64,000 nt of DNA from an uncultured Gemmatimonadaceae bacterium (GCA_963822945.1 CAWGJO010000036.1:60897-124896); one strand, 5' to 3'; shown: positions 44,557 to 59,371, counted from the stretch's first letter. The notes: a model not told the origin generated them from the letters alone. Numbers and translations: made by a program.

Positions 44557-44982
44557 TCAGGAATCCAGTGTCCTCCGCAACCTCAACGCGTCCCGAACCT
44601 CCCTAGCCGCGGCAACCAGGTCGTCCACCACACGCTGATCGACCTCCATCACGCCCTCGTATTCTGCCTGATTACGCAACCCGTGACATTTGGCGAGGAC
44701 GCGCCAGGTCCGCGGCGCCAGGCCAAGCGTGTGCGGCAAGCACTGGAATACGATGTACCGCTTCTCCGCACGATACCCCGCGATTCGGAGCGCGGCGAGC
44801 GAGAGCGCGTGCGCGCCGTTGTACGCCAGATCGAAGCGACTCTCCAGCGTCAGATCCGCGTTAGCGGCGTCGGCCAGACGCGCCTCACCCGACCGGCGCA
44901 GCCCGTCGATCTCCGCTGGGGACGGCGGCTCCGGTTTGAGCTGCCCCGAGCGCACCAGATTATCAAGCTCAGTCGAGGTCAC
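44557..44982 (-). CDS. HEPN-like protein
   Basis: SRFDLAYN.AH.L.L.ALR..GYR and C-terminal RNQAEYEG; overlaps the upstream MNT gene. Confidence 0.78.
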   Translation of the reverse strand: MTSTELDNLVRSGQLKPEPPSPAEIDGLRRSGEARLADAANADLTLESRFDLAYNGAHALSLAALRIAGYRAEKRYIVFQCLPHTLGLAPRTWRVLAKCHGLRNQAEYEGVMEVDQRVVDDLVAAAREVRDALRLRRTLDS

Positions 44983-45577
44983 GCTCCGCCCCGATGACGA
45001 ACAGGTGGCCGCCTGCGGCCACCCGGGCCACGAAGGATCCCTTGGCCGTCTTCTTGGCGCGCCAGCTCTTGACGGATAGCAGGGTCGGGTTCACCGCTCG
45101 GCCGAGCGTCGATTCAACCTCAGCCAGCGCTTCGAACACCTCGTCGTGGCGGACGGTGTCCGAGAGAATGAGCAGATCGATGTCGCTTCCCGCGCGATCG
45201 GTCCCCTTCGCCACCGAGCCGTACACGAACGCTGCGCGAATGCGATTGGCAAGCGGAGCGAGCGCCCCGCGCAGCGGCTCCACGAGGCCGACGCTCTTGA
45301 CCACCAATCCGTGCAACTCGTGGAATACCGGCGAATCGGCGTTCGCCTGATAGTGCTTCTGGTTGCCGATGCGGGTAACCGTGACCAACCCGGCATCGGC
45401 AAGACGCGCGAGCTGGCGGTGGACCGCGCCTGTGCCACCCTCGACCATGCGAATCAACTCGGAACTCTGGTAGCGCCGATCCGGCTGGCCGAACAGAAGC
45501 GCCAACACCCTGGCCTGAACCGGGGTGAAGAGCGCCGTCGATAAGCCTGAGGGGCGACTCGCCTTTGGCGTTCCCAT
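44969..45577 (-). CDS. HTH plus minimal nucleotidyltransferase (MNT)
   Basis: N-terminal winged HTH; AFVYGSVAKG...SDIDLL motif. Confidence 0.88.
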   Translation of the reverse strand: MGTPKASRPSGLSTALFTPVQARVLALLFGQPDRRYQSSELIRMVEGGTGAVHRQLARLADAGLVTVTRIGNQKHYQANADSPVFHELHGLVVKSVGLVEPLRGALAPLANRIRAAFVYGSVAKGTDRAGSDIDLLILSDTVRHDEVFEALAEVESTLGRAVNPTLLSVKSWRAKKTAKGSFVARVAAGGHLFVIGAERDLD

Positions 45578-45606
45578 AATGGGAATGATTACACCCATTC
45601 TGGGAA
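45571..45606. promoter_or_regulatory. Tandem palindromic operator sites at the MNT start
   Basis: ttcccataatgggaa (45571-45585) and cccattctggg (45594-45604). Confidence 0.6.
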
Positions 45607-45769
45607 TTGTGCAAGCCAGAGCGTTCTGTGCCATGCAGGCCACCTTGGCCCCTCGCCTCCGGCGTCATGTCACCATTCGAACGCCGGCCGAAGCATACCT
45701 CGCACAGTGACCGAACCGGTAGGAAATGGGCGCCTGCGACCGCAACGGCGCGGACGATTGCGTTGGGAG

Positions 45770-48743: not shown

Positions 48744-49520
48744 GTGACTCGGTACCGGCAGCTCGCGCGATCGACGTTCGCGGTGGGGATGATGGGCACC
48801 GGCGTCCTGCCGCTCGTGTACGGATACAAGGTGCTCCTGTTCCAGCCGGTGCCGGCGTGGGTTCCGTCGCCGCAGACGCTCGGGCTCGTTGCCGGCGTCC
48901 TGATGATCGCCACGGGCGCCGGGTTGCTGTTCGAGCGAACGGTGCGCGTGTCCGTTCGCGTGCTGCTCCCCTTCCTGCTGCTCTGGACGCTCACCCGGGT
49001 GCCGGCGGTGTTCGCGCAGCCGCTGCGCGAGATCAGCTGGTTCGCCATCGGTGAGGTGGCGGTGCTCGCCGCCGGGGCGCTGGTGATCTTCGTGCAGTTC
49101 GCGGGGCTGCGGGAGGGGTCGGGGCTGCAGGTGGCGATGGCGAAGCACGGCCTGCGCACCGCATGCGTTCTGCTGGGCCTCTCGCTCGTGACCTACGGTC
49201 TCTCGCACTTCTTCGAGTTCAGACTCCGGACCATTTCGCTTGTGCCCGCGTGGCTGCCCTTCCGCGCGGAGTGGGCCTACCTGGCCGGCGCCGGACAGGT
49301 GGCGTGCGGACTCGGCCTGGTGTTCGGGGTGTATCCGCGTCTCGCGGCGGCCACCGAAGCGGCGATGTTGAGCCTGTTCACCGTTCTCGTATGGGTGCCG
49401 GCGGTGGTCAGCAAGCCGGGGGTGACCTCCAACTGGGTGGAGGGTGTCGTCACGGCGGCGCTGGCGGGGGCGGTGTGGGTGGTGGCGGAGGGGATGCCGG
49501 CTGCGCGACAGGGGCACTGA
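48744..49520 (+). CDS. DoxX-like multi-pass membrane protein
   Basis: Duplicated VPAW.P...AYLAG...G pattern; about 8 TM helices. Confidence 0.75.
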   Translation: MTRYRQLARSTFAVGMMGTGVLPLVYGYKVLLFQPVPAWVPSPQTLGLVAGVLMIATGAGLLFERTVRVSVRVLLPFLLLWTLTRVPAVFAQPLREISWFAIGEVAVLAAGALVIFVQFAGLREGSGLQVAMAKHGLRTACVLLGLSLVTYGLSHFFEFRLRTISLVPAWLPFRAEWAYLAGAGQVACGLGLVFGVYPRLAAATEAAMLSLFTVLVWVPAVVSKPGVTSNWVEGVVTAALAGAVWVVAEGMPAARQGH

Positions 49521-49583
49521 CAAACGAAACGCCCGCCGCAGTTTCGCGGCGGGCGTTCGCAGTAGAGCATGCACCCAGCAAGT
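49520..49583 (-). ncRNA. Predicted anti-tRNA small RNA, module 1
   Basis: Starts ACTTGCTGGGTGC (49583-49571), perfectly complementary to the anticodon arm of tRNA 49634-49717. Ends in a terminator (stem 49528-49539 / 49546-49557, then a T-rich tail). Confidence 0.75.
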
Positions 49584-49589
49584 ACTTGG

Positions 49590-49618
49590 AGAGTATCGCG
49601 TCCACGGTGCCGAGTCAA
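49590..49618 (-). promoter_or_regulatory. Sigma70-like promoter TTGACT-N17-TACTCT for anti-tRNA 1
   Basis: Same -35, spacing and 6-nt distance to the antisense start in all four modules. Confidence 0.75.
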
Positions 49619-49633
49619 TGACTTTGGCGGCCG

Positions 49634-49717
49634 TGCCCGGAGCGGGATTTGAACCCGCACGCCCTTTCGGGCACACACTTGCTGGGTGCGCGTGTCTACC
49701 ATTTCCACCATCCGGGC
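49634..49717 (-). tRNA. Leu-type (class II) tRNA body with AGC (Ala) anticodon and C33; no encoded CCA
   Basis: GCCCGGA-TG-GTGG AAATGGTAG ACAC-G-CGCAC CCAGCAA GTGTG-TGCCCGAAAGGGCGT-GCGGG TTCAAAT CCCGC-TCCGGGC-A. Confidence 0.88.
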
Positions 49718-49983
49718 ACGTGAACGAGGATGGCGGAAGAGGGTCGACCACCCGGCAAGTCACTCCTCGCTACCCGGCGGAACCTTACCGCGTAAGAGGA
49801 GTGACATCGTCGCCGTAAGAACCCCAGGGGGAGCAGAATGTCGCATTCCACTCCACCGCGACCTCAAGGCCCGGCGGAGTGGTGCGGGTAGAAGATGAAA
49901 CTGACTCCGAGGCCGATCAATCCGCCGGCAGTTGCGCCCACGGCGATGGTGAACGGCACGACGAATGCAATCCGGCTCGGCAT

Positions 49984-50523: not shown

Positions 50524-50723
50524 GGCCGGTCCTTCCTCGGCAAAGGGTGTCTCGCGAGCATGCGCCGAGCATACACGCCGCGAGCGGAACGCCCTCACCG
50601 TTGTGTTGCGCTCCGCGTCATCCCGTCGCATCGCGGGAGACAGCCGAGCATATGCTCGGCTAGGCGGCCGAGTCAATGGGAAGGCGCTGCGGTGCCGTGT
50701 CCGGAGCGGATCGAACCCACCCC

Positions 50724-53966: not shown

Positions 53967-54170
53967 GCGGATGTCTCCTGGATCGGCGCGCGGGCGGGGG
54001 GCCGTGACGACGGTGCCGATGGGAGCGAGGGATGTCAAGGCGGGAGGAGATGATCCGGCCAGCGGGGAATCGGTCCCGGGACTTCAATTCACTGAGCGTA
54101 CGCTTCCCCGCGAGGTAGCGGAGAGCGTCTTGTCAGGCTGTCGATCCAGTTCCGGCACATCTGCGCACGT

Positions 54171-54254
54171 GCCCGGGTGGCGGAACTGGTAGACGCGTGT
54201 GTCTGGTAAGCACATGCTCGCAAGAGCGTGCGGGTTCGAATCCCGCTCCGGGCA
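54171..54254 (+). tRNA. Leu-type tRNA body with GGT (Thr) anticodon; no encoded CCA
   Basis: GCCCGGG-TG-GCGG AACTGGTAG ACGC-G-TGTGT CTGGTAA GCACA-TGCTCGCAAGAGCGT-GCGGG TTCGAAT CCCGC-TCCGGGC-A. Confidence 0.9.
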
Positions 54255-54270
54255 CGGCCTCACCAATCTG

Positions 54271-54300
54271 TTGACTCGGCGAGGCTGGCCGGCTATCAAT
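54271..54300 (+). promoter_or_regulatory. Sigma70-like promoter TTGACT-N17-TATCAA(T) for anti-tRNA 2
   Basis: Same position as in the other modules; weaker -10. Confidence 0.6.
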
Positions 54301-54304
54301 CAGA

Positions 54305-54370
54305 TGCTTGCCAGACACACCAGTTCCGCCAAACCGCCCGCAGCCTTCCTGGCCGCGGGCGGTTTCTCTT
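54305..54370 (+). ncRNA. Predicted anti-tRNA small RNA, module 2 (targets anticodon arm and D-arm)
   Basis: 54305-54320 pairs with 54197-54212 (16 nt, one G.U); 54319-54330 pairs with 54179-54190; terminator stem 54331-54341 / 54355-54365. Confidence 0.75.
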
Positions 54371-54417
54371 CGACGCCCACCTTGCCGCTCGGGCGACCGG
54401 CATCCATAATCGGGGCC

Positions 54418-55998
54418 ATGAATTCCAACATTCGCCACTGGATGCGCCTGCCCTCGGCTTCGCTTGCGATGCTGTTGCTGGCGGCGATGCCGTTGGCCGC
54501 GCAGGGGCGCGGTCGCGGCGGCCCGGGCCCGCAAGGGCACCCCTACGATTCGAGCACCACCGACGCACCGCCGGTGGTCACCCATCATACCATTCAGGTG
54601 GGCGGCAAGACCTACGCCTACACGGCCACGGCGGGACGACTGCCGGTGCCCGATGCGACGGGCAAGACCGAGGCCCACATCTTCTTCGTGGCGTACACGC
54701 TGGACGGGCAGAAGGACGCGAGCCAGCGTCCGCTGTCGTTCATCTACAATGGCGGGCCGGGCGAGCCGGCCATCTGGGTGCACGTGGGCGGGTTCGGTCC
54801 CAAGCGCATCGTACTGCAGAGCAACGGCGCGCTGCCCCCGCCGCCCTACAAGATGGTGGACAACCAGGAGACCTGGCTGCCGTTCACCGACATGGTGTTC
54901 ATCGACCCCGACGGCACCGGCTACAGCCGCGCCGTGTCGGAGAAGGCGCTCTCCGCAACCTCTGGGGTGGCGGGCGACCTGCAGTCGCTGGGCGAGTTCA
55001 TCCGCCTGTACCTCACCAAGTACGATCGGTACAGCTCGCCGCTCTATCTGGCGGGCGAGAGCTACGGCACGTTCCGGTCGGCGGGGCTGGCGGGATACCT
55101 GGCGCAGCGCGGCATCGCGCTGAACGGCGTGATGCTGCTGTCGAGCGTGCTCGACATGCAGACGCTCAGCGAGTCCACCGACAACGACCTGCCGAACGTG
55201 CTGTTCCTGCCCACGTACACGGCCACCGCCTGGTACCACAAAAAGCTGCCGCCCGACCTGCAGAAGCTCTCGCTCAAGGAGGCGGTGGCGCAGTCGGAGC
55301 ACTGGGCGACCACGGAGTACATGCACGACCTCTATGAGGGTGACGCGCTGCAGGGCGCCGAGCGGCAGCAGGCCGTTGCCCAGATGGCGCGCTATACCGG
55401 CCTGCCGGCCAAGCTGATCGACGACTACAACCTGCGCGTCAGCTCGTCGCTGTTCGACGCGACGCTGCTGCAGGGGCAGAAGGAATCCGTCGGGCGGCTG
55501 GACGGCCGCATGGTGAGCTTCAACCGCACGCCCGGCACGCAGCGCAACGACTTCGACCCCAGTTGGGTGCAGCGCCCGGTGTACACGCAGATGTTCACGC
55601 AGTACGTGCGCGACGACCTGGGCTACAAGACCGACGACGTGTACGGGGGCGGCATCGCGGGGTGGAACTTCGACGGCTACGGCAACAACATGAGCCAGTT
55701 GCTGGAGAGCGCCTTCGCCAAGAACCCGTACATGAAGCTGCTGCTGGCCACGGGCTACTACGACTTCGCCTGTCCGTTCTTCGAGGCGGAATACAGCATG
55801 CACCATCTCTTCCTGCCGCCGGATCTCCAGAAGAACATCACGGTGACGCATTACGAGGTGGGGCACATGATCTACCAGGACGACATCGCGCGCAAAGCGC
55901 TGGAGAGCGACGTGCGGACTTCATCGCCAACTCCGATCACGCGAAGGCGATGGATCTCGAGCCGAGATAGAGGAGCCGGGCGAGCCGCTGCTGAATAA
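54418..55998 (+). CDS. Peptidase S10 (paralog of 17005..18558); possible frameshift near 55915 with true stop at 55970
   Basis: YNGGPG, GESYG, GYYDFACP and GHMIY motifs. Confidence 0.92.
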   Translation: MNSNIRHWMRLPSASLAMLLLAAMPLAAQGRGRGGPGPQGHPYDSSTTDAPPVVTHHTIQVGGKTYAYTATAGRLPVPDATGKTEAHIFFVAYTLDGQKDASQRPLSFIYNGGPGEPAIWVHVGGFGPKRIVLQSNGALPPPPYKMVDNQETWLPFTDMVFIDPDGTGYSRAVSEKALSATSGVAGDLQSLGEFIRLYLTKYDRYSSPLYLAGESYGTFRSAGLAGYLAQRGIALNGVMLLSSVLDMQTLSESTDNDLPNVLFLPTYTATAWYHKKLPPDLQKLSLKEAVAQSEHWATTEYMHDLYEGDALQGAERQQAVAQMARYTGLPAKLIDDYNLRVSSSLFDATLLQGQKESVGRLDGRMVSFNRTPGTQRNDFDPSWVQRPVYTQMFTQYVRDDLGYKTDDVYGGGIAGWNFDGYGNNMSQLLESAFAKNPYMKLLLATGYYDFACPFFEAEYSMHHLFLPPDLQKNITVTHYEVGHMIYQDDIARKALESDVRTSSPTPITRRRWISSRDRGAGRAAAE

Positions 55999-56055
55999 GA
56001 GAACGCCCGCCGCGAGAAGCGGCGGGCGTTCGTACTACGGGTGCACCTGGTAAGT
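55994..56055 (-). ncRNA. Predicted anti-tRNA small RNA, module 3
   Basis: Starts ACTTACCAGGTGCAC (56055-56041), a perfect 15-nt complement of the anticodon arm of tRNA 56107-56190; terminator stem 56001-56013 / 56019-56031. Confidence 0.78.
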
Positions 56056-56061
56056 AAATGA

Positions 56062-56090
56062 AGGATACGGCGACCAAGACGCCGAGTCAA
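56062..56090 (-). promoter_or_regulatory. Sigma70-like promoter TTGACT-N17-TATCCT for anti-tRNA 3
   Basis: Read directly; conserved spacing. Confidence 0.78.
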
Positions 56091-56106
56091 CGAATTGATG
56101 AGGCCG

Positions 56107-56190
56107 TGCCCGGAGCGGGATTCGAACCCGCACGCTCTTCCGAGCATGCACTTACCAGGTGCACGTGTCTACCAGTTCCACCATCCGGGC
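56107..56190 (-). tRNA. Leu-type tRNA body with GGT (Thr) anticodon; no encoded CCA
   Basis: GCCCGGA-TG-GTGG AACTGGTAG ACAC-G-TGCAC CTGGTAA GTGCA-TGCTCGGAAGAGCGT-GCGGG TTCGAAT CCCGC-TCCGGGC-A. Confidence 0.9.
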
Positions 56191-56316
56191 ACGTGAACGA
56201 GGATGGTGGAAGCGGCCAGAAGGCGATTCTACTCCGGCCCGAGCGCCACGCCCCGAAGTACCTCGGCGACAGCGCGCCGTGGGCTCACGGGATCATATCC
56301 CGGCCCGGAATGCTCC

Positions 56317-59179: not shown

Positions 59180-59244
59180 CCGAAACCCAGAACGCCCGCC
59201 GCGGTAGGCGGCGGGCGTTCTGGGTTACAGCGCACTCGACAAGT
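59180..59244 (-). ncRNA. Predicted anti-tRNA small RNA, module 4
   Basis: Starts ACTTGTCGAGTGCG (59244-59231), a perfect 14-nt complement of the anticodon arm at 59338-59351; 19-bp terminator stem 59184-59202 / 59208-59226. Confidence 0.75.
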
Positions 59245-59250
59245 AAGAAG

Positions 59251-59279
59251 ACGCTATTTCGAACTCGGCGCCGAGTCAA
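59251..59279 (-). promoter_or_regulatory. Sigma70-like promoter TTGACT-N17-TAGCGT for anti-tRNA 4
   Basis: Read directly; conserved spacing. Confidence 0.75.
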
Positions 59280-59294
59280 GCGGTATGGAGGCCG

Positions 59295-59371
59295 TGCCCG
59301 GAGCGGGAATTGAACCCGCACACTCTTTCGAGCGCGCACTTGTCGAGTGCGTGTGTCGACCAGTTCCAACA
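59295..59371 (-). pseudogene. 5'-damaged Leu-type tRNA with GAC (Val) anticodon and C33
   Basis: TG-TTGG AACTGGTCG ACAC-A-CGCAC TCGACAA GTGCG-CGCTCGAAAGAGTGT-GCGGG TTCAATT CCCGC-TCCGGGC-A. The 5' acceptor strand is replaced by TAACCGC, which includes the addA stop codon. Confidence 0.82.

Follow-up and report, generated by a model that had tools for sequence, protein, structure and literature searches.

How can a bacterium survive transfer RNAs (tRNAs) that appear to be built for mistranslation? Few natural cases of such tRNAs are known, and the survival of their carriers is an open question. The question is raised again by a stretch of DNA of 64,000 nucleotides (nt) from an uncultured Gemmatimonadaceae bacterium (GCA_963822945.1, CAWGJO010000036.1:60897-124896), hereafter called the window. 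This stretch contains two intact tRNA genes that join a leucine-type body to the threonine anticodon GGU, and the initial annotation of the locus read them as Thr-to-Leu missense tRNAs. The sequence of the family to which they belong appears to hold a built-in answer, in that every such tRNA is accompanied by a candidate anticodon-masking RNA. The analysis of these sequences suggests a previously undescribed poison/antidote pair that would be made entirely of RNA and based on deliberate mistranslation. The source genome assembly comprises 3.97 Mb in 45 contigs and is 88% complete.

Three class II tRNAs of 85 nt were identified in the window with ARAGORN, two with anticodon GGT (54171-54255 on the plus strand and 56106-56190 on the minus strand) and one with anticodon AGC (49633-49717, minus strand). 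The Rfam tRNA model scored the window tRNAs at 54.8, 56.5 and 46.7 bits, with a cut-off of 29. The units in which they lie are hereafter called A (the AGC tRNA), B (GGT at 54171) and C (GGT at 56106), and an orphan is called D. In an alignment of 26 family members, both GGU tRNAs were found to be intact Leu-body molecules of class II, 84 nt long, with the U33, GGU anticodon, A37 and A38 that had been annotated, as well as C32, A14, G18 G19 and a G-C-rich T arm. The leucine hallmarks ascribed to them were likewise present in both, namely A73, A15, U48, G13 opposite A22 and a GCTC/GAGC variable-arm stem of 4 base pairs (bp). U33 holds for these two tRNAs but not for the family, in which C33 occurs in 8 of 26 members of the genome set and 8 of 38 members of the metagenome set. 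The anticodon stems differ between the two tRNAs (UGUGU/GCACA in B, UGCAC/GUGCA in C) with pairing kept, which had been taken as a sign of selection on structure. The family alignment confirms this: 99.7% of 624 cloverleaf cells are paired, none of 500 shuffles was as good, and two-sided changes occur in 14 of the 24 pairs of the 7/3/5/4/5 cloverleaf, all five anticodon-stem pairs included. Together, the pairing, the two-sided changes and the shuffles indicate a selected structure and not chance. An assembly or sequencing error behind the odd anticodon was considered and rejected, as these units, with compensatory changes, were found again in numerous genomes and metagenomes.

These genes are also correctly described as something other than ordinary tRNA-Thr genes, being 84 nt long with a 4-bp variable-arm stem, whereas the tRNA-Thr molecules of the same genome measure 73-74 nt. 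The genome's own set contains class I tRNA-Thr with anticodons CGU, GGU and UGU, tRNA-Ala with CGC, GGC and UGC, and four ordinary tRNA-Leu. Since normal tRNA-Thr, tRNA-Ala and tRNA-Leu genes are already in place, the three odd tRNAs of the window are supernumerary. ACC is a common threonine codon, as had been stated: in 1925 long open reading frames (ORFs) of the genome it accounts for 44.7% of the threonine codons and 2.59% of codons overall. ARAGORN also returned identical 98-nt 'tRNA-Arg(gcg)' calls at two places in the genome (C11:13312-13409 and C42:2857-2954, G000 contigs). A tRNA-SeC lies at C12:9704-9800, and some ten further long calls, made in G+C-rich DNA, appear to be spurious.

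The Leu body with a Thr anticodon therefore stands, but the picture of free-standing missense tRNAs is incomplete, because an antisense RNA and a leader had been overlooked. The view of the two genes as a Thr-specific pair holds only for their GGU anticodons; both belong to a large family with many non-Leu anticodons. Repeat finding and an alignment of three units delimited a conserved unit of ~280 nt that consists of a leader (~70 nt), the tRNA, a sigma-70-type promoter, an antisense seed and a terminator hairpin. The motif TTGACTCGGC lies 3' of the tRNA and is followed 17-18 nt on by TAnnnT, and then by a seed complementary to the anticodon stem-loop of the unit's own tRNA. The seed changes with the tRNA: it is CUUGCUGGGUGC in unit A (anticodon AGC), CUUACCAGGUGCAC in unit C (GGU, stem GUGCAC) and CUUGCCAGACACAC in unit B (GGU, stem GUGUGU). 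The Leu-type tRNA of unit A carries the alanine anticodon AGC with C33, and its seed reads GCU. In unit B a seed GCC stands opposite GGU, which gives one G.U pair in a duplex with a predicted energy of -46.7 kcal/mol.

The complementarity between seed and anticodon arm covaries at the level of RNA. Pairing at a fixed offset was observed in all 25 units with downstream DNA, with 14-18 Watson-Crick and 0-3 G.U pairs of 19; the 26th unit ends at a contig edge and was left out of this count. When 27 whole units were aligned, tRNA positions 26-42 and the seed proved to be paired in 94.8% of 459 cells, compared with 25-46% in slid controls, and two-sided changes were seen in 14 of the 17 pairs (98 cells). 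None of 500 shuffles matched the covariation score of this helix, and 7 of 500 matched its count of two-sided pairs. Seeds also fit their own tRNAs better than those of other units. The score for own partners in the genome set was 16.35 of 19, compared with 12.31 (standard deviation 1.89) for non-own partners, and the own partner ranked first in 20 of 26 cases; the corresponding scores in the metagenome set were 15.61 and 11.36, with the own partner first or tied in 26 of 38. Of the 38 non-identical metagenome units, 37 pair the whole anticodon triplet with the seed in Watson-Crick fashion and the remaining one does so via one G.U pair, and all 44 intact metagenome tRNAs have a partner seed. 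Among non-Watson-Crick cells, G.U outnumbers A.C by 32:13 in the genome set and 40:6 in the metagenome set (72:19 together), an excess which indicates that the pairing acts in RNA of the tRNA-sense strand and speaks against an inverted repeat at the DNA level. Duplexes between a small RNA (sRNA) beginning with the seed and its own tRNA have predicted energies of -28 to -47 kcal/mol, and in B-type units a second sRNA segment is complementary to tRNA positions 9-18. The U-turn of an anticodon loop is a classic target for fast antisense pairing.

The sRNA appears to have a gene of its own. All 25 of 25 units have the -35 element TTGAC(T/G)CGGC, a spacer of 17-18 nt and TAnnnT. Conservation is limited to the -35 box, the spacing and, in the -10 box, the T, the A and the final T, which is the pattern of a promoter and not that of an RNA helix. 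The seed begins 5-8 nt past the -10 box, where transcription would be expected to start. The motif TTGACTCGGC occurs eight times in the 3.97-Mb genome, and five of the eight copies lie within the window's island. No terminator was found between tRNA and seed, so that transcripts begun upstream of the tRNA would carry the seed as a 3' trailer. The sRNA matched no Rfam family at the gathering score, and the matches below threshold (E up to 1) were chance ones only, for example ar14 with 23 bits against 58.8.

This candidate sRNA gene often outlives its tRNA. Among the genome loci, 47 non-identical promoter-bearing elements were collected, 27 of them behind an intact tRNA, 16 orphans and four before a Uma2 gene; unit B, with its -10 box TATCAA, is extra to those 27. 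In the orphans, which make up 16 of the 43 promoter-plus-seed elements in genomes, the tRNA is 5'-truncated or gone and the promoter, seed and terminator are intact. Fourteen of the 58 metagenome elements are without a full tRNA, two of these through cuts at contig ends, which leaves at least 12 orphans. The converse, an intact family tRNA without a partner RNA, was not found by ARAGORN in one whole genome and the fetched loci; searches that depend on the -35 box are blind to partnerless tRNAs, so this half of the asymmetry rests on the ARAGORN scans. Unit D is an orphan within the window. The first ~9 nt of its tRNA are missing and the remnant begins 5 nt past the addA stop codon; the promoter, seed (anti-GAC) and terminator of the unit are intact. 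The same truncation was found in a second species (L027), and a full tRNA occupies the syntenic site in a third (L021:7551). No tRNA pairing with the unit D seed was found in the genome (88% complete).

Several variants of the element were seen in passing. At 50647-50720 on the minus strand, a TTGACTCGGC promoter (TTGACT-18-TATGCT) follows a T-arm/acceptor remnant and precedes a gene for Uma2, a putative restriction endonuclease, with no seed. Three relatives (L023, L031 and L037) show this arrangement as well, and a palindrome CTCGGC...GCCGAG in the spacer of the Uma2-preceding promoter may be an operator. A recurrent orphan variant in metagenomes (L186, L190, L194, L214, L228 and L234) carries a GCCGGCCGC-ACG-CGGCCGGAC hairpin in place of the tRNA; the hairpin is fused to the final ~20 nt of tRNA sequence, and promoter and seed are intact behind it. 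Seeds directed against a GGG (Pro) loop occur in the genome loci only as orphans (L026:15728, minus strand, and L040:6467, plus strand), and intact GGG tRNAs with such partners occur only in metagenomes (L188, L189 and L203).

A second region of complementarity lies upstream of the tRNA. A leader segment of 11 nt pairs with tRNA positions 5-15 in 90.2% of cells, compared with 27-52% in slid controls, and shows three compensatory pairs in 15 cells. This predicted helix has moderate support, given how little its tRNA side varies. An unguided RNAalifold prediction for 27 units contained the leader helix and the arm:seed helix, and of the cloverleaf only the hairpins of the variable arm and the T arm. 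With the same long-range helices, the unit C read-through transcript has a predicted fold of -130 kcal/mol (z = -7.76). These models suggest that the precursor is probably locked in a non-tRNA shape. Farther upstream, a conserved G(A/G)TGA(C/T)G motif lies ~21 nt 5' of a TAnnnT box, which is itself ~70 nt before the tRNA (54025-54105 and 18 other units), and an AATGATT-like box is found ~25 nt above that motif. The spacing of G(A/G)TGA(C/T)G and TAnnnT is unlike that of sigma-70 promoters and may mark an alternative-sigma promoter or a regulator site. A leader peptide 5' of the tRNA was also considered. Short ORFs end at the TGA of the motif in 11 of 19 units, with no ribosome-binding site and no consistent start, and this candidate was rejected.

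The family extends well beyond the window. BLAST of unit C against 40 relatives gave matches in 29 of 41 genomes, the window's own being counted, and among the 16 other members of the genus, ~10 genomes had strong, often multiple and clustered matches. In the loci fetched from relatives, ARAGORN identified 23 further Leu-type tRNAs of 85 nt with anticodons GGC, AGC, GGU, GAC, GUC and AGG, to which other genera add GCG and CGC. A strict pattern matched 16 of 401 genomes of the phylum; its reversed-pattern control gave ~10 hits, so single pattern matches are uncertain. A looser pattern applied to genome contigs returned mostly chance matches, with a family tRNA in 2 of 80 loci among the matches listed. 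The carriers are Gemmatimonadaceae or Gemmatimonadales metagenome-assembled genomes. A stricter pattern applied to metagenomes yielded 58 elements at 55 loci, with a full-length tRNA in 44 and the new anticodons GCC, GAU, CAC and GGG. Genomes of related Gemmatimonadaceae yielded 27 units with intact tRNAs and metagenomes yielded 44, and the family comprises at least 65 non-identical units in the phylum Gemmatimonadota. Its anticodons, 12-13 in all and none for Leu, are GGU, GGC, AGC, CGC, GAC, CAC, GUC, GCC, GAU, GGG, AGG and GCG. The codons GCC, GCG, GUG, GGC, GAC, CGC and AUC that they read are all seven of the non-Leu codons among the genome's nine commonest; ACC, GUC and CCC are read as well.

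The amino acid carried by these tRNAs is most likely leucine, because leucyl-tRNA synthetase (LeuRS) ignores the anticodon and its recognition elements are invariant in the family. According to the available part of a tRNA identity review, the Escherichia coli enzyme relies on A73 and the A15-U48/G18G19 corner, with no dependence on anticodon or variable arm. A73 is present in 26 of 26 members of the genome set and 38 of 38 metagenome units, and A14, A15, G18, G19 and U48 are invariant in the alignment; a single member of 83 nt, not included there, deviates at G19. The 7-nt anticodon loop, Y33, A37 and the LeuRS identity elements are conserved in 64 of 64 members. With anticodon and variable arms excluded, the bodies of B and C are 92% and 86% identical, respectively, to the genome's tRNA-Leu(CAA), and the genome has one LeuRS gene with no paralogue. 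Members of this family, which are under purifying selection, combine the body identity of one amino acid with an anticodon for a different one. No aminoacyl-tRNA synthetase, Fem-type, L/F-transferase or cyclodipeptide-synthase domains were found among the 20 window proteins and 66 proteins of the relatives' loci.

The part of the unit that evolves fastest is the anticodon arm, with a mean pairwise identity of 0.585 compared with 0.906 for the body. When unit B is compared with its ortholog from another species, 8 of 19 positions differ in the arm and 2 of 65 in the rest of the tRNA, together with the matching seed positions; the two leaders are identical, and the ortholog reads Asp. Two candidate anticodon switches are still paired via G.U, one in unit B (seed GCC against GGU) and one in L205 (seed GGC against GUC).

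Based upon these features, the unit is read as a toxin-antitoxin-like module in which a Leu-charged missense tRNA would be kept inactive by its cognate antisense RNA, a reading to which a probability of roughly one half is assigned. The tRNA of a unit such as B or C, once matured and charged with Leu, would insert Leu at the threonine codons ACC and ACU. Directly downstream, an sRNA of ~60-65 nt would be made from two sources, as the 3' trailer of the tRNA and from its own sigma-70-type promoter, with a 5' end complementary to 15-17 nt of the anticodon stem-loop of its own tRNA. Its pairing would open the 5-bp anticodon stem and bury the anticodon, so that no decoding could occur, and pairing of the leader with tRNA positions 5-15 would cause the primary transcript to be born locked, in a non-cloverleaf form. 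Insofar as both antisense RNA and leader mask the tRNA, decoding looks normally blocked or tightly gated. A stable missense tRNA would then be the poison and the cognate antisense RNA the antidote, the pair being located in a variable island with many other toxin-antitoxin and defence genes. If the antisense RNA were lost, as could happen when transcription is shut off, the locus disappears or a phage infects the cell, the tRNA would be set free and Leu might be misincorporated across the proteome. The organization resembles that of toxin-antitoxin systems in that the two genes are adjacent, the candidate antitoxin RNA is complementary to the candidate toxin RNA, and the putative antitoxin has, judging by sequence motifs, a promoter and terminator of its own that are kept in orphans. 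The orphan asymmetry, the aim at the commonest codons and the fast co-evolution of arm and seed fit a toxin-antitoxin or defence role better than a housekeeping stress device. A more specific reading is offered more tentatively, namely that these units form a new all-RNA class of toxin-antitoxin or abortive-infection system, in which a Leu-accepting tRNA would be aimed at a common codon and an sRNA antitoxin would zip up the anticodon stem-loop. As part of that proposal, specificity would be set by the rapidly diversifying, co-evolving pair of arm and seed, with a contribution from single-base switches tolerated through G.U pairing.

A number of observations weigh against the toxin-antitoxin reading. 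The promoter scan gave no sigma-70 promoter for the tRNA itself, and the U-tracts of the terminators are imperfect. Clean orthogonality among the window units was not supported, the sRNA of A reaching -26.5 kcal/mol on the tRNA of C, compared with -29.5 kcal/mol for the sRNA of C on that tRNA. C33, which should weaken decoding, is found in about a quarter of members. Family members are akin to one another, so that the counts given above are not independent events, and the pattern searches needed a -35 box, so that a tRNA without a partner could not have shown up there. The toxin-antitoxin and defence genes of the neighbourhood suggest a role through guilt by association only. Two RNA sequencing runs contained only portions of the S10 peptidase gene from relatives and are neutral on the tRNA and the sRNA.

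The strongest of the alternatives, although an unlikely one, is regulated beneficial mistranslation, in which the proteome would be diversified in times of stress and the antisense RNA and leader would act as a rheostat on free tRNA. The anatomy of the unit is equally compatible with such a role, and the non-canonical motif upstream of the tRNA, set against the near-consensus sigma-70 promoter of the sRNA, could reflect conditional expression of the tRNA. Dedicated bacterial tRNAs of hybrid identity do exist, according to the available part of a 2024 review (PMC11415595). Selfish or defence modules would, however, account better than a housekeeping stress response for the patchy distribution of the family (strong matches in ~10 of 16 genus genomes, the strict pattern in 16 of 401 phylum genomes), for the frequent destruction of the tRNA while the sRNA is kept, and for the presence in one island of several modules that have different anticodons and specificity segments that turn over fast.

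Distinctly less likely is a reversed polarity, with the sRNA as an effector that sequesters canonical tRNAs or targets mRNAs and the tRNA as a decoy or sponge that never enters the ribosome. The seed could also pair with ~9 nt of the loop of canonical tRNA-Thr(GGU), the C33 of some members suggests relaxed selection on decoding, and a tRNA-linked spacer reportedly serves as a sponge in E. coli (3'ETS-leuZ, described below). A harmful sRNA would predict that orphans with an intact promoter are rare, yet they are common. The complementarity moreover extends beyond the loop into the partner-specific stem; the LeuRS elements, 7-nt loop, Y33 and A37 kept in all 64 members would be needless for a sponge; and the anticodons are concentrated on the commonest codons.

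Ordinary decoding, in which threonyl-tRNA synthetase (ThrRS) charges the GGU copies as extra Thr isoacceptors with an odd body, is considered quite improbable. ThrRS might charge the GGU members, both of which have G35, U36, G1-C72 and C2-G71, the last two being presumably the bacterial Thr identity pairs. The tRNA identity review, in its available part, places Thr identity in acceptor-stem pairs and the anticodon. Sister members do not follow suit, as those with an Ala anticodon have C3-G70 and not the G3.U70 of alanyl-tRNA synthetase (AlaRS), and those with an Asp anticodon have A73 and not G73, so that cognate charging does not explain the family as a whole. This alternative also leaves the antisense partner unexplained, and a canonical tRNA-Thr(GGU) is already present in the genome.

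It is highly improbable that the tRNAs act as free-standing agents of constitutive, broad Thr-to-Leu mistranslation, as first proposed. Their intact cloverleaf, their Leu identity elements and the frequency of ACC are all in keeping with that proposal, but the anticodon would be covered by an antisense partner that covaries with it, and the 5' half of the tRNA by the leader, and constant Leu at 2.6% of all codons would presumably be hard to tolerate. The least credible alternative is a phase-variation switch in which arm and seed serve as inverted repeats round an invertible promoter: such repeats do lie ~110 bp apart with a promoter between them, and a contig joining 54221 and 56139 on opposite strands shows recombination or mis-assembly between repeated tRNA copies, but no recombinase gene is nearby in the window or the relatives' loci, recombinase sites are usually conserved whereas arm and seed vary and covary, and the 72:19 excess of G.U over A.C matters only for RNA of one strand.

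The toxin-antitoxin reading can also be set beside known systems. The tRNAProX molecules have reportedly been proposed to diversify the Streptomyces proteome under stress. This family (tRNAProA/ProN/ProT, of Streptomyces and Kitasatospora) is the only dedicated bacterial mistranslating family named in the available part of the 2024 review, in which antisense is not mentioned (PMC11415595). As described there, tRNAProX resembles the present family in being supernumerary, in joining one amino acid's body to the anticodons of others (Ala, Thr and Asn) and in its patchy occurrence in soil bacteria; it differs in its Pro body and three anticodons, compared with the Leu class II body, 12-13 anticodons, antisense RNA and masking leader found here. 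Allo-tRNAs (Mukai et al. 2017, PMC5389517) are described in the available text as having Ser identity and an 8/4 or 9/3 acceptor/T-stem geometry. Like the present tRNAs they are of class II type with many non-cognate anticodons, occur in soil and sediment bacteria, often lie near toxin-antitoxin genes and include many inactive copies; the same portion of that paper contains no mention of antisense, tRNALeu or Gemmatimon. The present family is set apart by a 7/5 geometry (7-bp acceptor in 100% and 5-bp T stem in 99.2% of cells), A73 instead of G73, and Leu identity.

Toxin-antitoxin systems with an RNA antitoxin include type I (hok/sok) and the all-RNA type VIII (SdsR/RyeA and CreT/CreA). In the available part of one source, types I-VIII are recognized (PMC11869752). 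The units described here share with types I and VIII the adjacent genes for presumed toxin and antisense RNA, a presumed neutralization by base pairing, a predicted folded inactive toxin transcript, common orphan antitoxins and location in variable islands. They differ in that the presumed toxin is a mistranslating tRNA and not a membrane peptide or a tRNA-sequestering RNA, and in that the candidate antitoxin would target an anticodon stem-loop and is encoded downstream on the same strand. The 3' external transcribed spacer (3'ETS) of E. coli glyW-cysT-leuZ is said to act as a sponge for the small RNAs RyhB and RybB. There, too, a base-pairing regulatory RNA derives from the 3' trailer of a tRNA-Leu transcript, although it soaks up unrelated sRNAs, whereas the RNA described here is complementary to the anticodon arm of its own tRNA and has a predicted promoter of its own. 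Nematode nev-tRNAs are reported to be Leu-charged class II tRNAs with Gly or Ile anticodons. They are thus said to share the Leu class II body, the non-Leu anticodons and a LeuRS blind to the anticodon, and to differ in being eukaryotic and in having no known antisense partner. Neither the literature searched nor Rfam yielded a tRNA gene with a partner RNA complementary to the anticodon arm of that tRNA.

The coordinates of the four window units are collected in Table 1.

Table 1. Features of units A to D, in window coordinates; promoters, seeds and terminators are predicted.
Unit	Feature	Position	Strand	Basis or remark
B	Leader	54099..54170	+	TAnnnT box TACGCT at 54099-54104, ~70 nt before tRNA; upstream conservation; promoter assignment uncertain
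B	Leader segment complementary to tRNA positions 5-15	54150-54160	+	
B	tRNA, Leu-type class II, anticodon GGU	54171..54254	+	ARAGORN, Rfam, alignment; no encoded CCA, A73 at its end
B	Internal promoter TTGACT-17 nt-TATCAA	54271..54299	+	Sequence reading; -10 weaker than those of other units
B	Seed	54305..54330	+	54305-54320 against anticodon stem-loop; 54321-54330 against tRNA positions 9-18 (D arm)
B	Intrinsic terminator hairpin, U-rich tail	54331..54372	+	
C	Leader	56191..56265	-	56200-56212 complementary to tRNA positions 5-15; helix in minimum free energy fold
C	tRNA, Leu-type class II, anticodon GGU	56107..56190	-	ARAGORN, Rfam, alignment
C	Internal promoter TTGACT-17 nt-TATCCT	56062..56090	-	Promoter scan
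C	Seed CAUUUACUUACCAGGUGCAC against anticodon stem-loop	56041..56060	-	Inverted repeat of 20 nt, 90%; 17 Watson-Crick + 1 G.U of 19
C	Intrinsic terminator, 13-bp stem	56001..56031	-	Promoter/terminator scan
A	Complete unit	49520..49792	-	Leader 49718-49792; tRNA 49634-49717; promoter 49590-49618; seed 49569-49585; terminator ~49520-49558
D	Orphan unit	59183..59370	-	tRNA remnant 59295-59370 (anticodon GAC); promoter 59251-59279; seed 59230-59247; terminator 59183-59220

The region around the units is syntenic but variable and includes genes for AddAB, Amt, an S10 peptidase, a BNR protein, Uma2, DoxX and a Mo-oxidoreductase. In relatives, the region also contains RES-Xre toxin-antitoxin pairs, a Schlafen-type helicase, a DUF4143 ATPase and an HsdM fragment. 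The contig that joins 54221 to 56139 on opposite strands is a DNA contig from another sample; it represents either an inversion of the S10 peptidase segment between copies B and C or an assembly chimera over 41 shared letters. At 44557-45643 on the minus strand, a protein with a nucleotidyltransferase domain (NTP_transf_2/Polbeta) is encoded beside an ORF of 141 amino acids without a Pfam hit, and the two may form a toxin-antitoxin pair of the MNT-HEPN type.

If the toxin-antitoxin reading is correct, tRNA would join the toxins of toxin-antitoxin or defence modules, and the anticodon loop would serve as an antisense target. The units would then amount to a natural, programmable missense-tRNA switch, useful for controlled mistranslation and genetic-code engineering. 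With at least 65 non-identical units and 12-13 anticodons within one phylum, there is ample natural variation to work with, and proteome-wide mistranslation as a weapon or stress tool of bacteria would become directly testable.

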